DNA from: a virus
Lineage: Duplodnaviria; Heunggongvirae; Uroviricota; Caudoviricetes
Virus record (IMG/VR): IMGVR_UViG_2585427795_000009
Coordinates: 1-37,639 of that record
Direction: 5' to 3' (one strand)
Length of the DNA: 37,639 nt
Position 1 is the first letter of the stretch; the number at the start of each line of letters is the position of its first letter. The notes beneath the pieces were generated by a model. The model worked only from the letters and a program-made list of their open reading frames with translations. It had not been told where the DNA came from and made no database searches. The position numbers and the translations under genes were made by a program. This document shows positions 8,567 through 29,049 of the stretch, piece by piece.

Positions 8567-9160
8567 TCAATTATGTAAATCTTTTGTTTTATGTTCTTTA
8601 GCGTATTGTGACAACAAATGGCTATAGCGTTTAAGCAAAATATTAGAAAGATTAAGCTCATTCATGAAGTGTTCTTCTAATAAGTAACCATCAATATCAA
8701 CTTTAATATCATTACCACTTTTCATCTTCTGTAACGTAGATTTTACACGCTCCAGCAGGATGCTTTGCTCATGGTAATAGTCCATAAGAAGAGTAACATC
8801 CTCTTTATCAAGCTTACTTAATTCGCTGAAGTAGGATTTAAACACTTTATCAGTCTGGTTTAATGCAATCTGTAAGCGAGGCCCCCCTAATGATTTGACA
8901 TTAATGGCAAAAGGCTCGCCAACAAAATGCTCCGAATTTTCGTCAAAGCCAATATGTCTCGTTTTATCAAGAAAAGTGAGAGCGCGATGGTTATTAGCGA
9001 TTTCATATGCAAACATTGTTCTGATACTGTCCCTCTCAGCCTCCATGCTTATATCATCACGATGATTTGTATAAAATATATTTCCAACAAAGAGAACCAT
9101 AGCAAGAATCACTGAACTTGCCTCCCAGTTAATATTTTTTAATCGTCGCTTAGTAAACAT
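8567..9160 (-). CDS. Hypothetical membrane-anchored protein, AT-rich cargo gene in the Z/fun slot
   Basis: 197-aa ORF with ATG start and AAGGTG SD 6 nt upstream; one N-terminal hydrophobic helix (SSVILAMVLFVGNIFY); clearly lower GC than flanking G and FI; no recognisable motifs. Confidence 0.6.
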   Translation of the reverse strand: MFTKRRLKNINWEASSVILAMVLFVGNIFYTNHRDDISMEAERDSIRTMFAYEIANNHRALTFLDKTRHIGFDENSEHFVGEPFAINVKSLGGPRLQIALNQTDKVFKSYFSELSKLDKEDVTLLMDYYHEQSILLERVKSTLQKMKSGNDIKVDIDGYLLEEHFMNELNLSNILLKRYSHLLSQYAKEHKTKDLHN

Positions 9161-9381: not shown

Positions 9382-9909
9382 TTATTGCGGCATTTCCGGC
9401 CATTCAGGATTTGCAGGATCCACACGGCTGACCAGAACGCTGTAGCGTTCCCATGCTTCCAGTCGGCTGCGTTCCTCATCTGTTGCCATATTCAGCCTGA
9501 CAGCGCGCTCCAGCGGCACAATCACGGATTCTGCTTCGGAAAGCAAAGTTGCCTTTTGTGATTCTGCCAGTTGCTGCTGTTCGTCTGCCGTATAAATCCG
9601 CTTAATCACGGCACCATCCTTAAACATCCATTTACCTGAGTCATCAGCACGTCGGTTGGCAGTAATATCAGGAACCTCGACAACGCTAAAACCTTCAGGG
9701 TTAAGCGTTGAAGCATCTCGGGTGATGCCGACAATTATATTATTCTCGTCGTAAACAATCTTTATCGTCTCTTCCTGAAAATTACTTACTTCCTCATACC
9801 AGTTTTTTCCCTCTTCGGACCATAACCAGATAACATCAAAATTTTTTGTCAGTTGATATTGGGCAACAGTTTTTGGATTACCCGCAGTAATATTTTTTAA
9901 ATGCTGCAT
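9382..9909 (-). CDS. G: Tail fibre assembly protein gpG (Tfa family)
   Basis: 175 aa; Tfa-like C-terminal region ([30 protein letters not shown]); immediately downstream of H; N-terminal half AT-rich. Confidence 0.85.
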
Positions 9910-9912
9910 AAA

Positions 9913-12135
9913 TTACACCTGTGCGACGTTATACCATGTGCCATTGATGTATTTTTGTATTGGTCTGAATACTGCGGGGTCATCACCATCGACTTCACCG
10001 ACAATACCAAGCCCTGTAATTACGTGCCCTGCTTTCTCATACATCACTCCTTTCTGCATGGTCTGAACAACACGAGTGCCCAGGCGAATATCCCGGACAT
10101 AGCGAGAATCTGATTCAGCTTTGGTGTATGCACCAACATCTCCCGCTGATGGTTTTCGTGTTGTGGTATAGAAATCAGACCAGCCAGATTCAAAACCATA
10201 ACCATCACGGGCTGACCTGTAAGATATACCGCCATTTTTATAATTCACACGAAACTGTACAGCCGGGCAGCTACCAGCATTTATATTAAAGTGAAGAATT
10301 AATGCAGATGCTCCCCCAATCAGAGCGTTGTATGCGCCACTGTCCCAATTCCATCCCACGGCTGTATCACCATTAACCGTATTACCTGTCTGCCGAAGTG
10401 CAAATGCACCGACATTTCTGGCATTAAGGGTAATATCTCCAGAACCATCAAAGGCAACACCTGCTATTTTCCTCGGTGTTTCGAGTTTTGAGGCTGTTGC
10501 AGCATTTCCTGAAAGGTTGGAAATAAATGGATGTGAGCAGTAATAACCGCGCCCATTTTTAAAATCCAGAATAGCCTGTGCGTTCGTGCTTTCTGTAGCG
10601 GGATTAGTTGCCCCCCACTTATATGTCGTTTTACCGACGACATAATCCTCTGTCGGAACAATAACCGTTAGCCCTTCCTCTGCAAGAATTTGCACAGGGA
10701 AAGCTCTGGCTTCAACATAAAAAACACTACATACATCATCATCTTTCAGGCTTGTAACAATGGAATGGATTGAACGCTCATTGGTCTGATACGTCCAGAA
10801 ATAACCTGCCGCATATGAACCACGATCGGTCCAGCCTCCGGGCATAACCATGCCATTAAACTCGCAGTTATTCATTACATAATCGCCGTTATAACAACCA
10901 GTTGAAATAACGACGCGGGATGCCATTTCTCCTGAAAGGCTGGCAGCACGGCGAAAGATAACGGGATACCACTTCCCGGCAACGACATTTGCAGGGGCGG
11001 CAAACGAATACTTTCGCATTCCCTTTTTCTTATCCACTTCACCTTTGCTGTAAACATTAATGTTACTCAGGAAGCGTCCTTTATCAGGAATATCCGCACC
11101 GTTCTGATCTTTCTGGAGACGTTTTTCAGCATTGTCATAGGCAGACTTCACCGCTTTTGGTGTTGCAGCCAGCGTTTCAGAATCACTGTTGGTGGCGCTA
11201 CTGAGCTGGACAAGACCTTTTCGCGCTGTGGTGGCATCCTGTGCAGTGTATTTCCCGTTAGCAAGGTCATACGCTGTCTTAACCGCCTTTGGCGTTGCCG
11301 CAAGCGTTTCAGAATCGCTGTTGGTGGCGCTACTGAGCTGGACAAGGCCTTTTCGCGCGGTGGTGGCGTCCTGTGCAGTGTATTTCCCGTTAGCAAGGTC
11401 ATATGCTGCTTTTACCGCTTTTGGTGTTGCGGCGAGCGTTTCAGACGTGCTGTTGGTGGCACTACTGAGCTGGACAAGGCCTTTTCGCGCTGTGGTGGCG
11501 TCCTGTGCAGTGTATTTCCCGTTAGCAAGGTCATATGCTGCTTTTACCGCTTTTGGTGTTGCGGCGAGTGTTTCAGACGTGCTGTTGGTCGCACTGCTTA
11601 ACTGAGTAAAACCTTTGGCGGTCAGCGAGGCGTCCGGGTGACGTCGTGACTGTTCATGTTCTGCAATTTTGTCATCAACGTAATCCTGCGTTGCCATCAC
11701 CGTTGTGGTGTCAATGGTCAGCGCCACTGAGGCCACACTGCTGACGATGATGACCATGCGGCAGGTCTGCGAACGCCCTGAGCCTTCGGCAAGAGCTGGC
11801 TTATAACTTTCAGCCATGTTCGCCACGGCAATTAACGTTCCAGCATCATCGTACAGGCCAAGCTCACGCATCCAGAAACCGCCCACCTCCGGCGGAATAA
11901 CCAGCTCTGCGATAATATAATTACTGTTTCGTTTGTCCTGGCTGATTTTGTTCAGCGCATGTCGCCAGACTTCGTGGATAAGCCCGGTCTGTCCGGCATC
12001 CGGGACAGGCAATTTACCACCGCCATCCCCGACGGCCATCGTGGTAATGTTGACCTTCCGCCCTCCCGGTGCGGTTGCCGCTGCCAGCTTTGCTGCACCG
12101 GCAGTGGTGATAACGGTTTTGAATTTTGTGCTCAT
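9913..12135 (-). CDS. H: Tail fibre protein gpH with four tandem 40-aa fibre repeats
   Basis: 740 aa; N-terminal MSTKFKTVITTAGAAKLAAATAPGG typical of P2 H; internal repeats KGLVQLSSATNS(T/D)SETLAATPKAVKAAYDLANGKYTAQDATTAR x4. Confidence 0.88.
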   Translation of the reverse strand: MSTKFKTVITTAGAAKLAAATAPGGRKVNITTMAVGDGGGKLPVPDAGQTGLIHEVWRHALNKISQDKRNSNYIIAELVIPPEVGGFWMRELGLYDDAGTLIAVANMAESYKPALAEGSGRSQTCRMVIIVSSVASVALTIDTTTVMATQDYVDDKIAEHEQSRRHPDASLTAKGFTQLSSATNSTSETLAATPKAVKAAYDLANGKYTAQDATTARKGLVQLSSATNSTSETLAATPKAVKAAYDLANGKYTAQDATTARKGLVQLSSATNSDSETLAATPKAVKTAYDLANGKYTAQDATTARKGLVQLSSATNSDSETLAATPKAVKSAYDNAEKRLQKDQNGADIPDKGRFLSNINVYSKGEVDKKKGMRKYSFAAPANVVAGKWYPVIFRRAASLSGEMASRVVISTGCYNGDYVMNNCEFNGMVMPGGWTDRGSYAAGYFWTYQTNERSIHSIVTSLKDDDVCSVFYVEARAFPVQILAEEGLTVIVPTEDYVVGKTTYKWGATNPATESTNAQAILDFKNGRGYYCSHPFISNLSGNAATASKLETPRKIAGVAFDGSGDITLNARNVGAFALRQTGNTVNGDTAVGWNWDSGAYNALIGGASALILHFNINAGSCPAVQFRVNYKNGGISYRSARDGYGFESGWSDFYTTTRKPSAGDVGAYTKAESDSRYVRDIRLGTRVVQTMQKGVMYEKAGHVITGLGIVGEVDGDDPAVFRPIQKYINGTWYNVAQV
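11110..11640. repeat. About 4.3 tandem copies of a 120-bp unit inside H (coding fibre repeats)
   Basis: Near-identical 120-bp units visible directly in the DNA; they give identical peptides in three frames of the ORF track. Confidence 0.85.
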
Positions 12136-13581: not shown

Positions 13582-13929
13582 TCAACTCACAGGGATGGTT
13601 AACGAAAGTGGCTGGCCGGTGTCGTTGTGCTGGCCGGTTAACGTGACCGTCATTCGCCCGTCAAAACTGCGCTCAGTGGTGACGGATGACAGGGTGACGC
13701 GGGGTTCCCATTTCAGCACCGCCATGTAACAGGCGACCTTAATCTGCAACTCAAGCGCCGGGGTCTGCGGCTGGTCAATCATTGATGCCAGCAACGAGCC
13801 GTAATCACGACGCATCACCCGTGAGCCGACCGGTGTGCGCAGGATATCGCCGATACTCTGGCTGATATGCTCAAGGTCAGTGACAGTCAGGCCATCACTG
13901 CGATTCATTCCGAGATAACGCGCTGTCAT
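13582..13929 (-). CDS. W: Baseplate wedge protein gpW (gp25-like)
   Basis: 115 aa, synteny V-W-J. Confidence 0.88.
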   Translation of the reverse strand: MTARYLGMNRSDGLTVTDLEHISQSIGDILRTPVGSRVMRRDYGSLLASMIDQPQTPALELQIKVACYMAVLKWEPRVTLSSVTTERSFDGRMTVTLTGQHNDTGQPLSLTIPVS

Positions 13930-14561
13930 AGAGGGCTCCCGGTTGTGCCGCCGCTGTCGCCGGGGTGTTTATGGGTATGCAGTACCTTACCGTTTGATGA
14001 GAGTTCACCGCCGGTGTGTTCAATGTTGCCGCGCATCGTCCCGCCCTTCTGCACTTCCAGCGTGCCGGTAGTCAGTTTGTTAGTGCAGACCACTTCTGGT
14101 GTGTCCAGGGTGACACGGGTTGACGCTTTCACCGTGACCACCGGTACCGTGGCAGTAACAGAATCAGAAGCCGTCACGCTGGCCGTTTTAATTCCGCTTA
14201 CCGTGAGTGCACTGGTTTCGGGTTCATACTCAATCACCGCCCCGTCAGGGAAACGGATATGCAGGGCATCAGCCGACGCAGACGGCGCAGGGTTATCGCC
14301 GGAATAAATCCCCGGCAGAACGAACGCCGTGTCGAGTTCACCGCCCACGGCCAGAATCAGCACCTGTTCCCCCACGGAAGGTGCCCACCATGTGCGCGAA
14401 CGTCCTGCGCGATGGGTCAGCCACTGAAGCCAGTCGGTGCACATGCCGCCGGTCTGCACGCGGCAGCGACCGGCGTTAAGGTCGGTTTCGACGATAATGC
14501 CGGTGCGAATCATGTTGCGCAGTGCGCGCGCGAGTTCCTGAATATTTGCGAGAGTGTTCAT
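13926..14561 (-). CDS. V: Baseplate spike protein gpV
   Basis: 211 aa from ATG at 14561 (MNTLANIQELARAL...); the ORF track start at 14579 is a TTG extension. Confidence 0.88.
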   Translation of the reverse strand: MNTLANIQELARALRNMIRTGIIVETDLNAGRCRVQTGGMCTDWLQWLTHRAGRSRTWWAPSVGEQVLILAVGGELDTAFVLPGIYSGDNPAPSASADALHIRFPDGAVIEYEPETSALTVSGIKTASVTASDSVTATVPVVTVKASTRVTLDTPEVVCTNKLTTGTLEVQKGGTMRGNIEHTGGELSSNGKVLHTHKHPGDSGGTTGSPL

Positions 14562-14644
14562 GCATGTGAGATTGCACAATATATAAAAGTTATGCTATCT
14601 GGATTCATTTGTAGAACTACCAGACAACATTCAAGGAGAGCGTA

Positions 14645-15430
14645 ATGGTCAGCTATAATGTGACTAATGTGTGGGAGCTAATCGTTTTTTTCCTTTGTAG
14701 CTTTGCAGTATTAGCATTTTTTAGCTTTGGTAAAAGTAACCTTATGAGGCTTATTGCACATTATTTCAATTTTGGATATTCAGACAAAAAATTAAAAAGA
14801 CTTGACCGCGAGTGGCGCGACATTCAACTATTTAAAATAATTAACGGAATCAATGTATCAGGCATTGAAAATGTGAGAATGATACAGCAGGGACTGATTG
14901 ATGGAAAACTAAAAACATCGTATTTTTTCCTTACTCGCATCTGGGGTGACATAACAAAGCCACCACACATAATTAAAACAATAATTGTAATTCTGGCCAG
15001 TATTTTTTACATTCTTCTCGCATGTTACATACACAACGAACAATCCGTTATAGTAAGGGATGCCATAGGCATACCATATAAAAACATGATGTACTATGTT
15101 TATAGTGACAAAGTTCTTTTATCCTTCAAAAATAAAGCAGTTGAATTTAATAAAACTTATAGCCTTGCCGATTGCAAGAGACTGCAAAACGTATTTATAA
15201 AAGACACACTTCCTGAGATCGCCTGCAATAAGCTCTTACAGCTAAACGAGGAGGACTCCGAATGGTTAAGTCAGGAGATTAAAGATAATAACAGTCACAA
15301 AAAAGCATTATTAATACTATCCCTCGTCTATTTCACTTCAGGTCTGGTTATATTCCTGTCATATACAAAATTCTTTTACGCCAATAAGAAGGTTTTAGAA
15401 TACAAAGCATCAAATAAAAATCACTCATAA
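14645..15430 (+). CDS. Hypothetical multi-pass membrane protein, AT-rich cargo gene in the orf30 slot between S and V
   Basis: 261-aa ORF with strong SD (AAGGAGAGCGTAATG); opposite strand to the late operon; three hydrophobic helices (LIVFFLCSFAVLAFFSF, IIKTIIVILASIFYILLACYI, ALLILSLVYFTSGLVIFLSY); much lower GC than neighbours. Confidence 0.65.
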   Translation: MVSYNVTNVWELIVFFLCSFAVLAFFSFGKSNLMRLIAHYFNFGYSDKKLKRLDREWRDIQLFKIINGINVSGIENVRMIQQGLIDGKLKTSYFFLTRIWGDITKPPHIIKTIIVILASIFYILLACYIHNEQSVIVRDAIGIPYKNMMYYVYSDKVLLSFKNKAVEFNKTYSLADCKRLQNVFIKDTLPEIACNKLLQLNEEDSEWLSQEIKDNNSHKKALLILSLVYFTSGLVIFLSYTKFFYANKKVLEYKASNKNHS

Positions 15431-15501
15431 ACCTCTAAACATTGAGCGACCAGCATGGCCGCTCAATGTTTAATTGCGCATCAGCCTCTGCCTGGATAAA
15501 A

Positions 15502-15954
15502 CTAACGCTCAAGGTGAGCCAGGATAATCTCTTCAATCATCTGCACATCCTCACAGGTAAAGCCGAGCAGAGGACGCGCCGGATAATCAATTTTCTTACC
15601 GTCTTTCCGGGTTTCTTCCGACAGACCGAACTGATGCACACTGGCGATTTTCGGCGACTTCCCGCCGTAAAATTCCATTGATGCCTGTTCCGGGCTGGCG
15701 CGGATATGCAAAAAACGACTGGTGATAAGTTTCGCAAACATTTTTCGCTTAACACGACCGGTCTTTTTTCTGGCGCGCTGCTGCTGGCGTGGCGCGTAGG
15801 GTGTGCCGTCCGGGGCTTTCTGTGCCATCACCCGGCGCTGCTGACTCTGCCGCAGACGTTTCGCCAGTTCGGTGCTCAGTCGCCGACGCCCTGACGGTGA
15901 CAGTGATTCAATCAGTCCGGTCAGACGGTCTTCAAAACGCTTAAACTCATTCAT
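15502..15954 (-). CDS. S: Tail completion protein gpS
   Basis: 150 aa, synteny. Confidence 0.85.
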   Translation of the reverse strand: MNEFKRFEDRLTGLIESLSPSGRRRLSTELAKRLRQSQQRRVMAQKAPDGTPYAPRQQQRARKKTGRVKRKMFAKLITSRFLHIRASPEQASMEFYGGKSPKIASVHQFGLSEETRKDGKKIDYPARPLLGFTCEDVQMIEEIILAHLER

Positions 15955-24487: not shown

Positions 24488-24729
24488 GTAAATATATAAA
24501 GTTGGCGGAATGCAATCCCGCCAACTTAACTATATATGCGTATTTTCATGAAAGGAGATCACTCAATAACTTCCATCGAGATCGGGTAATAACATTTGAA
24601 CAGATCGCTGAATAACATCGATGGAGATCACTTTTGACTCATTTTGTTATTCAGTGATCTCCATCAATGTTATTGGAACTTCACAGGTGTGTTGATCTGT
24701 ATCTTTTGCCATTCCGGTAAAGGATACCT

Positions 24730-26271
24730 ATGCCAACAGTTCCAATTTCTATGAGAAAACTTAAAGAAATTCTTAGGCTTAAATACGGTGTTGGACTCAG
24801 CCATCGACAAATTGGTCGTAGTCTTGCAATCTCCCCTTCCGTTGTATCCAGATATGCTAATCGGGCGGCTCAACTTGGCATAAAGCAGTGGCCCTTACCT
24901 ACAGGATGGGATGATACAAAACTAAAACATGCGTTCCTTCAGACCCAGGTTAAGATGAAGAAGCACTCTCTGCCTGACTGGGCTACAGTACACCGGGAAC
25001 TGCGTAATAAATGCGTGACGCTGCAGCTACTCTGGGAAGAATACTGTGAGCGTAATCCAGGCGGTTTTTACAGCTATAACCATTACTGCCGGATGTACCG
25101 TGAATGGCTCAAAACCACTTCACCATCAATGCGTCAGGTACATAAAGCTGGCGAAAAACTTTTCGTTGATTACTGTGGACCTACCGTTGGCGTTACCGAC
25201 CCTGAGACCGGAGAAATAAGAACTGCTCAGGTCATCGTAGCTGTTCTCGGGGCATCAAGTTACACATGGGCAGAGGCCACCTGGTCTCAGCAGCTTGAAG
25301 ACTGGGTGATGAGTCATGTTCGCTGCTTCCAGTGGTTGGGTGGCGTTCCTGAACTTGTTGTTCCGGACAATCTGAAAAGCGCCACATCCAGGGCATGTAA
25401 GTATGATCCTGACGTTAACCCTACCTACCAGCAGATGCTTGAGCATTATAATGTCGCAGTTTTGCCTGCGCGGCCACGTAAACCGAAAGATAAAGCCAAA
25501 GCTGAAGTTGGCGTTCAGGTTGTTGAACGCTGGATCATGGCCCGAATCAGGCATGAGATCTTCTACAGCCTTGCATCGCTTAATCAGCGCATTCGGGAGT
25601 TGCTGGAAAGACTGAATAACAAAATAATGCAGAAGTTGGGTTATTCACGTGCAGAACTCTTCATCCAGCTTGATAAACCCGCACTGAAGCCTCTTCCTGA
25701 AGCCAGTTACAGTTACACCCTGGTGAAGAAAGTCAGAGTTCATGCCGATTACCACGTGGAAATCGACAAACATTACTACTCGGTTCCATGTTCGCTGTTA
25801 GGCCAGCAACTGGAAGCATGGATCTCCGGAGAACTGGTAAGACTCTTCAATCAGGGGCAGGAGGTTGCTGTGCACCCGCGCAAGCGTACTTATGGCTACA
25901 GTACCCGCAACGAGCACATGCCTGAAGCTCATCGACAGCATGCCACCTGGACGCCAGAGCGTCTTCTGGAATGGGCGGGGCACATAGGCAGTGAAACTCA
26001 TAGTTATGTGCTTCATATACTGAACTCTCGTCCACATCCGGAACAAAGCTATCGCTTCTGCCTTGGACTCCTGAACCTTCATAAAAAATACAGTAAAGCC
26101 AGACTTAATGCAGCATGTGCAAGAGCTCTGAAAACAAAGGTATGGCGTCTGTCAGGTATTAAATCGATCCTGGAAAAAGGTCTGGATAAACAACCTGTTC
26201 AGGATCCAAAACCAGATCTGTTATCCACGATGGAACACGAAAACGTACGCGGCAGTGAGTATTACCACTGA
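24730..26271 (+). CDS. istA: IS21-family transposase IstA
   Basis: 513 aa; N-terminal HTH (LSHRQIGRSLAISPSVVSRY), DDE-type core, SD AAAGGA upstream. Confidence 0.9.
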   Translation: MPTVPISMRKLKEILRLKYGVGLSHRQIGRSLAISPSVVSRYANRAAQLGIKQWPLPTGWDDTKLKHAFLQTQVKMKKHSLPDWATVHRELRNKCVTLQLLWEEYCERNPGGFYSYNHYCRMYREWLKTTSPSMRQVHKAGEKLFVDYCGPTVGVTDPETGEIRTAQVIVAVLGASSYTWAEATWSQQLEDWVMSHVRCFQWLGGVPELVVPDNLKSATSRACKYDPDVNPTYQQMLEHYNVAVLPARPRKPKDKAKAEVGVQVVERWIMARIRHEIFYSLASLNQRIRELLERLNNKIMQKLGYSRAELFIQLDKPALKPLPEASYSYTLVKKVRVHADYHVEIDKHYYSVPCSLLGQQLEAWISGELVRLFNQGQEVAVHPRKRTYGYSTRNEHMPEAHRQHATWTPERLLEWAGHIGSETHSYVLHILNSRPHPEQSYRFCLGLLNLHKKYSKARLNAACARALKTKVWRLSGIKSILEKGLDKQPVQDPKPDLLSTMEHENVRGSEYYH

Positions 26272-26282
26272 TACGGGATCCA

Positions 26283-27032
26283 ATGATGAATCATCTTTAC
26301 GAACAACTGACCGCACTTAAACTCACCGGCTTCCGTGATGCGCTTAAAAAGCAACTTGCTCAGCCGGGCACATACCAGGAGCTGGGCTTCGAAGAACGCC
26401 TGTCATTACTGACAGCAGAAGAACTAACCTGCCGTGAAAACAGGAAGGCAGAGCGTCTGATCAAACATGCACGGTTCAGACTTAATGCTGAGTTATCAAA
26501 GCTGGATTATCGTAACAATAGAGGGCTGGACAGGGCCCTCATCCGTTCACTCAGTCAGGGAAACTGGTTAACCCTGAAACAAAATATTTTACTGACCGGG
26601 GCCACCGGCAGCGGTAAAACGTTCCTGGCATGTGCACTTGGTCATAATGCCTGCCGACAGGGATACAAGGTCTACTATTATCGCCTTAAAGCGCTGATGG
26701 AACAGTGCTATCAGGGGCATGCTGATGGAAGATACAGCAAACTTTTGACCAGGCTGAATAATAGCGATCTGCTGCTTCTGGATGACTGGGGGCTGGAACC
26801 TCTCTCATCAGAACAGCGTAGCGACCTGCTGGAAATAGTGGATCTGATGTACCAACGAGGCTCAATCATCGTAGTGAGCCAGTTGCCGGTGGAAAACTGG
26901 TACAAAATGATCGGAGACTCCACACATGCGGATGCCATCCTAGATCGACTGGTTCATGGCAGTATCAAGATCGAACTTAAAGGAGAATCAATGCGGAAAA
27001 TACAATCTCCGTTGACCGAAGGAGATCAGTGA
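26283..27032 (+). CDS. istB: IS21-family ATP-binding helper IstB
   Basis: 249 aa; Walker A (LLTGATGSGKTF) and Walker B (LLLLDDWG); AAA+ IstB pattern. Confidence 0.9.
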   Translation: MMNHLYEQLTALKLTGFRDALKKQLAQPGTYQELGFEERLSLLTAEELTCRENRKAERLIKHARFRLNAELSKLDYRNNRGLDRALIRSLSQGNWLTLKQNILLTGATGSGKTFLACALGHNACRQGYKVYYYRLKALMEQCYQGHADGRYSKLLTRLNNSDLLLLDDWGLEPLSSEQRSDLLEIVDLMYQRGSIIVVSQLPVENWYKMIGDSTHADAILDRLVHGSIKIELKGESMRKIQSPLTEGDQ

Positions 27033-27118
27033 AGGTAATTTAAAAACGGTTCTGTGAAAGTGACACGAACCGATCTCCATCGATGTTACTCACCGATCTC
27101 CTTCACGGTAATACGCAA

Positions 27119-27826
27119 CTATATATACTTCCTTTTTACTCTACTTAATTCTATCACTGATGAGGAGTGACAAAATGACAAATTAATAGTATCGATATAA
27201 TCCAAAATTTGACTCTCAACCTCAATAAAAATATTTTTGGGCCCATTACTAATCGATATACCGATTTCATCCAAAACAGCCATCATTTTTCTCTGATGAG
27301 TTTTATATTTATAGTCTTTATTTTCCTCTGTAATATGTGCATTGGCTTCCTCAATAACACATTTGATTCTAGATATTATTTCTAGATAATCTCTCGAAAC
27401 AGATATATCACCGCCTTGCGCTTCAGGGAACATAACCCTATACCATCTAAAAAAATTAACTTTCTCTGGATAGATGCTACTTCTTTTAGTTAACTCAGCA
27501 CTTGCAAATTCTCTAAACATCGTCAGATGACTAGTGTAATTACTATTATTATTATTTTTAACTCCAGCGTTATATGTCATCAAAGCAATCATAACACCAA
27601 AAACGGTAACAAAAGTTGTTATAAGCCATCCAAACGCCTGAAAATACATTACTATACCAGATGTTTTTTCCGCAAAAAATTTTAAGCACTGGCTATCGAA
27701 GCATATATCACGCTCATATAGCTTTTCATTCTGAATAGTTTCAAAAAGAGAAATTAGCGAAAAAATCAAAAAAAGAGCTGACGACACACCGACAATATAT
27801 TTGAGAAGTCTAATATTTGCATTCAT
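27119..27826 (-). CDS. 2-TM membrane protein, candidate effector translationally coupled to the upstream reverse transcriptase
   Basis: 235 aa; two N-terminal TM helices (LLKYIVGVSSALFLIFSLISLF and GIVMYFQAFGWLITTFVTVFGVMIALM) then a roughly 150-aa soluble domain; its ATG overlaps the RT stop (ATGA); AT-rich. Confidence 0.7.
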   Translation of the reverse strand: MNANIRLLKYIVGVSSALFLIFSLISLFETIQNEKLYERDICFDSQCLKFFAEKTSGIVMYFQAFGWLITTFVTVFGVMIALMTYNAGVKNNNNSNYTSHLTMFREFASAELTKRSSIYPEKVNFFRWYRVMFPEAQGGDISVSRDYLEIISRIKCVIEEANAHITEENKDYKYKTHQRKMMAVLDEIGISISNGPKNIFIEVESQILDYIDTINLSFCHSSSVIELSRVKRKYI

Positions 27827-29049
27827 AATGGTTTTAAAGATGCCAATCTAGATTTAAAACACTCCAGTTTTTCTTTAAATGATTCAGAGCGAGTAAGAAT
27901 AATCATCTTATATCTCGTCAAATCATATTTTCTTTTATACCAATGTTTATTTTGATTACCTTTCGAATACGACAACTCTAAACTTTTTATAGCTGCATCA
28001 ATCACAGCAACATCTCTTTTAGATGGCATCGGTTTTATTGCCTGCAACTGTTTCTTGAATGATTCATATTTTTCATGCCCAACACGGCCAAGCTTATTCA
28101 CTCTCCCCATACATCTATTGAATTCTTTTCTGTATGCAACACTTGTTTTTGTGTTATTTTTTGCCGCCAGTAATTTCAAATTATGTATAGATGCCCTGAT
28201 TCTTTTGACTTCATCGGATGGTAGTCGAGGTGAGTCATAGTCAACTCTTAAACCATGTACTTTTATAGGTTCAGATGAACAGTGAAATATTTTAGTTTTG
28301 TGCTTATTTATCGGCAAGTCATGCTCAGAAAGCATCCTCTCTATATGGCTTTGCATTTGAGAAAAATCATAATTACTTATTTTAGATGACACGGTAATAT
28401 CATCTACCAAACGCGTATAAACAAGTCCTTTCCTCTGCGCACGTCTTACCACATCCCCTTCAACAGCGAATAAACACAAAGTTGCTATATAGCTTGATGT
28501 TAAGGCCCCCTGTACGACAAAATCATCCTTAGTACATATATCCACCAAGTATTCAAGAGCCTCATCCTTAATATGCAATATCTCCTCAAACACGCTCCTA
28601 ACCAGATCTCTATGGATATTATCGAAAAAATTACTTATATCCACCTTGAGAACTGTTTTTGCTCCACAATGAGCCTTTGCACATGAAACATAGTCACGTT
28701 TGACATTAGAATTTAAAACATCATTTTTACTGGGAACTGAACCAAACAAAAATGAAGGAAAAACAACCAATTCCTTAAAGATACGTTTATTAATTCTACT
28801 CTGTAATAATCTCATTTTAGGATGCAGGGAGTAGACAATCCGTTTGCTTCCGTCAATTTTGGGAATTTCTTTTAGAGTATATTTCTCATCTAATGGTAAT
28901 TCTGCAATAGCTTTAAGCTCTTCAACAGAAATCGATAAAGCCTTTGACAACTTTTCAAGTGTTGTGATAGGAGCATTGGATTTGCTGTATGGTTTAAATT
29001 TATCCATAAACATACCATTCAAATTCAAAGTTACGTACGGTCTTCCCAT
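27823..29049 (-). CDS. Retron-type reverse transcriptase (start uncertain: ATG at 29049, 29013 or 29007)
   Basis: RT motifs read directly: KRIVYSLHPKMRLLQSRI (motif 1-2), CAKAH-x5-VLKVDISNFFDNI (NAxxH-like plus motif A), QGALTSSYIATL (motif B), YTRLVDDITVS (motif C, YxDD), LPINKHKTKIF (motif E), IKVHGL in the position of the retron VTG motif; about 130-aa C-terminal extension. Confidence 0.82.
   Translation of the reverse strand: MGRPYVTLNLNGMFMDKFKPYSKSNAPITTLEKLSKALSISVEELKAIAELPLDEKYTLKEIPKIDGSKRIVYSLHPKMRLLQSRINKRIFKELVVFPSFLFGSVPSKNDVLNSNVKRDYVSCAKAHCGAKTVLKVDISNFFDNIHRDLVRSVFEEILHIKDEALEYLVDICTKDDFVVQGALTSSYIATLCLFAVEGDVVRRAQRKGLVYTRLVDDITVSSKISNYDFSQMQSHIERMLSEHDLPINKHKTKIFHCSSEPIKVHGLRVDYDSPRLPSDEVKRIRASIHNLKLLAAKNNTKTSVAYRKEFNRCMGRVNKLGRVGHEKYESFKKQLQAIKPMPSKRDVAVIDAAIKSLELSYSKGNQNKHWYKRKYDLTRYKMIILTRSESFKEKLECFKSRLASLKPL

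Follow-up and report, generated by a model that had tools for sequence, protein, structure and literature searches.

P2-like phages carry horizontally acquired genes at three sites, one of which is the region between the genes S and V (PMC3091744). In phage P2 this region holds orf30, described as a 786-bp open reading frame (ORF) of unknown function that is inserted between S and V and that phages Wphi and L-413C lack (PMC2771037). It is among the few genes of this model phage that have never been given a function. Here, we study the gene at the same position in a 37,639-nucleotide stretch of Caudoviricetes DNA (IMG/VR record IMGVR_UViG_2585427795_000009), referred to as the window, which is a complete P2-like prophage of Escherichia coli UPEC-245U/190328 (UPEC, uropathogenic E. 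coli) located between yegR and yegQ. The original prediction, made from the DNA without database searches, described the gene as cargo of the orf30 slot. The slot is right; however, the gene is not unnamed cargo but orf30 itself.

A region of 1,061 nt matches bacteriophage P2 (AF063097) at 99.3% identity, and 259 of the 261 residues of the protein (99.2%) are identical to P2 Orf30 (AAD03281.1; AF063097 9439..10224). The only two substitutions are E11 and I141 in the window against G11 and T141 in P2. The length, the S-V position, the opposite-strand orientation, the terminator hairpin and the activator site of the late promoter pV are all the same, while the setting differs, as this is a UPEC prophage with other cargo in the remaining two variable regions. 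Judged by this identity, the feature is phage P2's own orf30; as this gene was known before, its presence here is an ordinary result. The prediction had taken it for an accessory gene rather than a conserved essential one, and the P2 record AF063097 labels orf30 "nonessential". The slot of Wphi is empty also in our sequence comparison. In the paper on phage R18C (PMC6823313), P2 ORF30 is given as '261-bp-long'; the actual gene has 786 bp and the protein 261 aa. What the present analysis adds is the synteny across genera, the hyper-divergence of the family, its tandem paralogues, a link to DUF6216 and strain BL21, and a model of topology and fold.

HK97 gp15 and P22 SieA are membrane proteins that act in superinfection exclusion. 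So is T4 Imm, a small inner-membrane protein that keeps the genome of an incoming phage out by binding to its tape-measure channel (bioRxiv 10.64898/2026.03.06.709160). Like these three, Orf30 is small, phage-encoded and without catalytic motifs, and it is predicted to lie in the inner membrane; it differs from them in size and in the number of transmembrane (TM) helices, and no sequence or fold similarity was detected. P2 itself has the genes old, tin and fun(Z). These genes and the P2/P4 defence hotspots resemble orf30 in being nonessential, AT-rich, horizontally swapped and found at fixed positions, although Old, Tin and Fun are not homologous to Orf30. With somewhat less than even confidence, we suggest that orf30 encodes a prophage-expressed exclusion factor of the inner membrane that guards the lysogen against other phages.

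Synteny and divergence of the orf30 family

Orf30 has a full-length match (positions 1-261 of 261, E 1.2e-148) to the family phrog_2407, which is of unknown function; this is its only above-chance match in PHROG. A word-indexed search of 5.8 billion proteins returned only close E. coli alleles and one Enterobacter relative at 39% identity. When 1.84 billion representatives were searched exhaustively with a profile, 44 relatives were obtained; about 25 span the full length (250-270 aa) and are colinear with Orf30. The profile scan of genome contigs with alignment A2 gave no confirmed match. Remote homology search had been proposed as a check on the original prediction; it does reveal a distant family (phrog_2407 and relatives at 17-39% identity), but not a family of known function.

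The relatives with 17-39% identity hold the same V-S slot as orf30 and are transcribed away from V and towards S. They are found in P2-like prophages of Serratia nevei, S. ureilytica, S. rubidaea, Yersinia (cluster P0026 with Y. enterocolitica, Y. kristensenii and Y. frederiksenii), Sodalis, Enterobacter and an unclassified Enterobacteriaceae bacterium, as well as in metagenomic contigs. The opposite-strand arrangement between V and S is seen in 12 of the 15 relatives' loci examined. The three exceptions are short metagenome contigs, a copy at a contig end in Enterobacter, and a copy in Leclercia. The V-S occupant is not arbitrary: in several enterobacterial genera, exactly this site holds members of one hyper-divergent family of three-TM proteins (phrog_2407, related to DUF6216).

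Two of these loci contain further genes. The Leclercia adecarboxylata copy (L032 1385-4750) lies outside a P2 context at a chromosomal junction, beside the remnant of a P4-like satellite (Psu and a fragment of primase D5). In one Enterobacter locus (L031), the family member is followed, about 1.5 kb downstream, by a NACHT-domain gene.

The family diverges much faster than its neighbours. The Orf30-family proteins are 22-32% identical, compared with 59-84% for V, 54-76% for W, 43-65% for S and 52-80% for R. In two Serratia prophages W, V, S and R are 99%, 94%, 90% and 97% identical, respectively, while the Orf30 copies share only 45%. For seven phage alleles from E. coli and Yersinia phages, the dN/dS of orf30 is 0.4-0.5 versus 0.03-0.2 for V and S, its dN is 4-10 times higher, and the ORF is intact at 786 nt in every allele. 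Among close alleles, variable columns make up 70% of TM helix 1, 52% of TM helix 2 and 42% of the periplasmic sheet. One degraded prophage carries two tandem paralogues of the family between V and a fragment of S (L021 6001-6771 and 6900-7658), which are 25% identical to each other and both AT-rich, and intact copies are kept in several decayed prophages. All family copies have a GC content of 0.33-0.38, even in Serratia, where the copies have 0.35-0.38 within flanks of 0.61. Taken at the level of these sequence comparisons, orf30 is under selection yet fast-evolving, and the divergence together with the tandem paralogues forms the pattern expected of conflict genes that determine specificity.

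In E. coli, orf30 is present in 461 of the 1,572 complete genomes that carry these V/S flanks, i.e., in 461 of all 5,426 complete genomes, and most of the other flanks are empty or hold a replacement. To describe the slot, 40 evenly spaced records were taken from the 1,575 E. coli records matching the V/S flanks. The slot holds orf30 in 12 of them (one copy split by IS2), is empty in 23 and holds another single gene in three; in the remaining two only one flank is found. The original prediction had called this a known variable slot of P2-like phages, and the slot is indeed variable, as the sample contains orf30, empty sites and other cargo; the commonest occupant is one family. The prediction had also proposed orf30 as a moron. 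This agrees with a base composition unlike that of the flanks, with the presence or absence of the gene among relatives, with its nonessential status in P2, and with the hairpin directly 3' of it, a terminator that is shared with the O operon.

The three other cargo genes of the sample are all AT-rich and unrelated to Orf30. One encodes a 359-aa RelA/SpoT protein of toxSAS type, which matches the PADLOC candidate PDC-S33 and has a GC content of 0.33 (L016 802-1881, NZ_CP023357.1). Another encodes a soluble protein of 247 aa without a family (L014 746-1489, NZ_CM151386.1). The third lies on the late-gene strand and encodes a 246-aa protein with a weak HNH_5 match (L015 740-1480, NZ_CP013025.1); its length equals that of a 741-nt ORF of phage R18C (PMC6823313), the two being compared by length alone. 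The orf15 of phiCTX, which occupies the same slot, was considered and is not a member of the Orf30 family. The IS2-split copy comes from a clinical isolate (L017 746-2867, NZ_CP173472.1), where each of the two halves is annotated as a pseudogene. Two hotspot studies, Rousset et al. 2022 (PMC9122126) and bioRxiv 10.1101/2024.10.15.618418, do not cover the S-V slot.

Predicted topology and the relation to DUF6216

Orf30 is predicted to be a three-pass inner-membrane protein with the N-terminus outside, the first loop and the C-terminal tail in the cytoplasm, and the second loop in the periplasm, see Table 1. This topology is based on hydropathy, the positive-inside rule, two conserved cysteines in the second loop and an AlphaFold2 (AF2) model. 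The model built from the family alignment has a predicted local distance difference test score (pLDDT) of 84.7 and a predicted template modelling score (pTM) of 0.76; a model from the single sequence was discarded (pLDDT 49.7). In the alignment of 29 sequences, G68, G87, C194 and I212 are invariant and Q61, D76 and K254 nearly so, while C177 is the second conserved cysteine of loop 2. The same alignment shows a family motif in the first loop, D-x-QLF[KR]-x2-NGINV-x4-D[AV]. From the two cysteines, a C177-C194 disulfide in the periplasmic domain is probable.

Searches with Orf30 itself connect it to no described protein family. The Pfam scan gave no match, even at E<=10, and none of the defence or candidate-defence models of PADLOC-DB 2.0 was matched (0 families); for the 29 relatives PADLOC gave chance-level matches only. 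The sequence-profile search against PDB returned nothing, and the structural search of BFVD and PDB with the model gave no match. The sole NCBIfam match, a protein from a tick cell line, was rejected as chance (E 0.018, 15 bits versus a cut-off of 120 bits).

One relative, P0060 from Rahnella ecdela (A0ABS6LJP2), is named 'SMODS and SLOG-associating 2TM effector domain-containing protein' in UniProt. This SLATT reading was set aside, as the label is found on P0060 only, and neither Orf30, the 29 alignment members nor P0060 has a SLATT match in Pfam, where P0060 shows a weak DUF6216 match only. The UniProt name is probably an automatic prediction.

A link to DUF6216 (PF19723) appears through the relatives. 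The Sodalis relative P0030 passes the gathering threshold of this family over its full length (28.9 bits versus 27.3 bits), and at least 13 further relatives have colinear matches below the threshold (10-24 bits). Orf30, without a match in the scan described above, is not a member by the Pfam rule. In the defective P2-like prophage of BL21(DE3), which also carries the retron Ec86, the V-S slot likewise contains, on the opposite strand, the gene for a DUF6216 protein (WP_000115390.1). This protein has 268 aa and three TM segments, and the GC content is 0.33. Orf30 shares its overall shape, i.e., about 250-270 aa, three TM segments and the V-S slot. The periplasmic two-cysteine motif of the BL21 protein aligns with that of Orf30; however, the hhalign alignment covers only this two-cysteine region, with a probability of 9%, the identity is 23% over 172 aa (E 0.07), and the cytoplasmic loop is about 40 aa long compared with 80 aa in Orf30. 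Because the direct similarity is this weak, we describe Orf30 as a probable distant relative of DUF6216 and not as a member. Of the 5,426 complete E. coli genomes, 111 carry the BL21-type gene, among them strain C and the B derivatives; the BL21 protein has no match in the phage-isolate collection. Together, orf30 or a DUF6216 relative occupies this slot in at least 572 of the 5,426 genomes (461 + 111), BL21 among them.

Phage exclusion and rival explanations

The proposed function could be carried out as follows. The prophage would express the gene weakly and without the need for Ogr, with H-NS perhaps damping this expression, and the product would protect the lysogen from other phages in the manner of the P2 conversion genes old, tin and fun/Z. 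Most likely, Orf30 would act in superinfection exclusion at the inner membrane, and its periplasmic or TM face would interfere with the channel, or with a host partner, used for the passage of incoming phage DNA. An action on genome entry at the inner membrane is proposed because of the architecture of Orf30 and its solitary state. The diversity of alleles would then set the range of phages that are blocked. The points that we count for exclusion are the nonessential accessory nature of the gene, its foreign GC content, its fast evolution, the defence-type company in the slot, the Psu remnant and the NACHT gene beside relatives, the intact copies in degraded prophages, the orientation opposed to the late operons and the precedent of T4 Imm. 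The original prediction had named superinfection exclusion as one possibility; we find it plausible and follow it as the leading reading.

Three observations weigh against this proposal. The family and structure searches revealed no homology of Orf30 to known superinfection-exclusion or defence proteins. A scan for consensus sigma-70 promoters upstream of orf30 found no strong site. Finally, the best-conserved region of Orf30 is the cytoplasmic loop. This last point fits a different scheme, in which Orf30 is an abortive-infection effector, i.e., a latent membrane-damaging protein (pore-forming or depolarising) that would detect infection via its conserved cytoplasmic loop and then kill the cell or arrest it. 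An AT-rich and perhaps H-NS-silenced gene would suit a toxic product, the same slot hosts a toxSAS, a classic type of abortive-infection toxin, and P0060 bears the SLATT 2TM effector name, which lacks Pfam support. However, Pfam assigns no SLATT or effector family to any of the members scanned, P0060 included, orf30 is solitary, with neither a sensor nor an antitoxin partner in the loci examined, and the conserved disulfide-type periplasmic domain would be left unexplained. We therefore consider abortive infection unlikely. The small multi-TM inner-membrane architecture also resembles that of colicin-type immunity proteins, and the tandem divergent paralogues recall arrays of immunity genes. 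From this, and from the intact copies retained in decayed prophages and the wide distribution of orf30 in clinical E. coli, a lysogenic conversion unrelated to phages can be imagined, either immunity to bacteriocins, tailocins or toxins of the type VI secretion system (T6SS), or a transporter or envelope modulator useful in the host niche. Here, no cognate toxin gene is found nearby in any locus examined, and the sole Pfam match to colicin K immunity is at chance level (E 0.11, in one member). Moreover, nearly all family members lie in one slot of a single phage family, and this points to a phage-centred role. We regard a conversion of this kind as quite unlikely.

A phage-centred role need not concern other phages. 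Orf30 could take part in the lytic cycle of P2 itself, in lysis timing, in DNA entry or exit, or in baseplate or tail assembly at the membrane. The gene lies between tail genes and near the lysis cassette. As the pV activator site falls within its leader, a coupling of its expression to the late switch is conceivable, and the family is strictly syntenic with V across genera. An accessory lytic role is nevertheless improbable in our view, as the gene is nonessential in P2, is missing both in viable relatives such as Wphi and in most P2-like prophages of E. coli, gives way to unrelated soluble proteins in some prophages, is transcribed against the late operons, and stays intact in remnants that are unable to make virions. 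Its dispensability, the lack of a known phenotype and the tolerated IS2 interruption might even point to a passenger without function, a selfish or decaying insertion held by linkage alone. This we regard as highly improbable, since the ORF is intact and of constant length in 7/7 phage alleles with dN/dS below 1, the Shine-Dalgarno sequence is strong, and the family remains colinear with invariant residues down to 17% identity across genera.

An extension of the exclusion proposal, which we hold to be rather doubtful, is that Orf30 belongs with the DUF6216 proteins in a single superfamily of solitary exclusion factors, inner-membrane proteins with three TM helices that are tied to the V-S junction of P2-like phages. 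Their disulfide-bonded periplasmic domain and variable TM helices would recognise ejection proteins with which particular incoming phages insert into the membrane, and the divergent alleles and tandem paralogues would be a repertoire of specificities, quieted by H-NS until needed. If this were true, a new class of single-gene anti-phage protein would be present in roughly a tenth of the complete E. coli genomes. If orf30 does encode a phage-exclusion factor of the membrane, P2 would have a defence locus in its third classical variable region as well as in old/tin and Z/fun, and a single-gene system that the present defence finders miss would be added. This would also bear on the phage susceptibility of clinical isolates and of common laboratory strains.

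Gene anatomy, regulatory elements and neighbouring cargo

The original prediction had placed a 261-aa ORF with a strong Shine-Dalgarno sequence on the plus strand of the window, and its coordinates, the ATG and the AAGGAG element were all found (Table 1). Its further statements also hold: V and S, on either side of orf30, are both on the minus strand, Kyte-Doolittle hydropathy gives three TM segments, no enzymatic motif is recognised in Orf30, and the gene is AT-rich. The GC content is 0.337 in the ORF (0.34-0.35 in 400-nt windows) versus 0.55-0.60, about 0.57, in both flanks. Because a stop codon is expected every ~14 codons at such a base composition, 262 codons would stay open with a probability of about 3e-9. 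The longest open stretch that arose in any of 2000 shuffles had 198 codons, compared with 271 observed at orf30, and the ORFs on the opposite strand within the gene reach only 44-48 aa. The ORF is real and not a chance feature.

Table 1. Features in and around orf30. Positions refer to the window unless another record is named.
Feature	Position	Strand	Basis and remarks
orf30 coding sequence, 261 aa + stop	14645..15430	+	ATG start; PGAP WP_032213766.1, hypothetical protein
Shine-Dalgarno AAGGAG	14633..14638	+	read from sequence; ATG 6 nt downstream
TM helix 1, aa 9-28	14669..14728	+	hydropathy; most variable segment among close alleles (70% of columns)
Cytoplasmic helical loop (predicted), aa 29-108	14729..14968	+	net charge +7; AF2 helices 48-67, 74-86, 91-94
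TM helix 2, aa 109-129	14969..15031	+	hydropathy
Periplasmic domain (predicted), aa 130-219	15032..15301	+	four-stranded beta-meander and helices; conserved C177, invariant C194
TM helix 3, aa 220-240	15302..15364	+	hydropathy, AF2; followed by basic cytoplasmic tail, aa 241-261
Gene V (baseplate spike)	13926..14561	-	late gene; left border of the slot
TATATAAA, palindromic -10-like element between V and orf30	14580..14587	both	read from sequence; candidate shared -10
Ogr activator site of the late pV promoter	14603..14630	-	transferred from AF063097 misc_feature 10239..10266, offset +13002
Hairpin, 17-bp stem	15436..15472	both	inverted repeat; P2 feature 9397..9433, rho-independent terminator of the O operon
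Gene S (tail completion)	15502..15954	-	late gene; right border of the slot
DUF6216 gene of BL21(DE3)	L034 35115-35921 = NC_012971.2 885114-885920	opposite to S and V	PGAP name

V and S are members of two late operons. For V, the ORF listing reaches a TTG at 14579, while the annotations of P2 and PGAP use the ATG at 14561. The activator site of pV sits within the 5' leader of orf30, 3 nt from the Shine-Dalgarno sequence. Its 'ACAAC' half is conserved, and the cargo starts just beyond it in every locus. Few bases separate the activator site from the Shine-Dalgarno sequence, so any promoter of orf30 must overlap the core of pV. A weak candidate, TTCATG-17-TATATA, does overlap pV, and the palindrome TATATAAA is a candidate -10 element shared by pV on the minus strand and this weak orf30 promoter on the plus strand. 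No canonical TGT-N12-ACA site can be assigned to orf30.

On the other side of the gene, the hairpin begins 6 nt past the orf30 stop and has a folding energy of -22.4 kcal/mol on the plus strand and -28.3 kcal/mol on the minus strand (z about -5). From its sequence it would be common to the convergent transcripts of orf30 and of the O operon (S) and can end both. The opposite orientation, the Ogr site in the leader and the hairpin 3' of the gene fit an expression of orf30 outside the late programme.

The remaining two variable regions of the window are also occupied. A hypothetical protein of 197 aa without a Pfam family is encoded in the Z/fun slot (8567-9160, minus strand), which is bordered by the genes for tail-fibre assembly and for the sheath. 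The old/tin hotspot, from A to the portal gene, contains a retron with a reverse transcriptase of the Ec48 family and a membrane effector (24530-26418, minus strand; PGAP annotation of the identical UPEC record), and PGAP annotates a second RNA-directed DNA polymerase of 515 aa in the same hotspot (26958-28505, plus strand).

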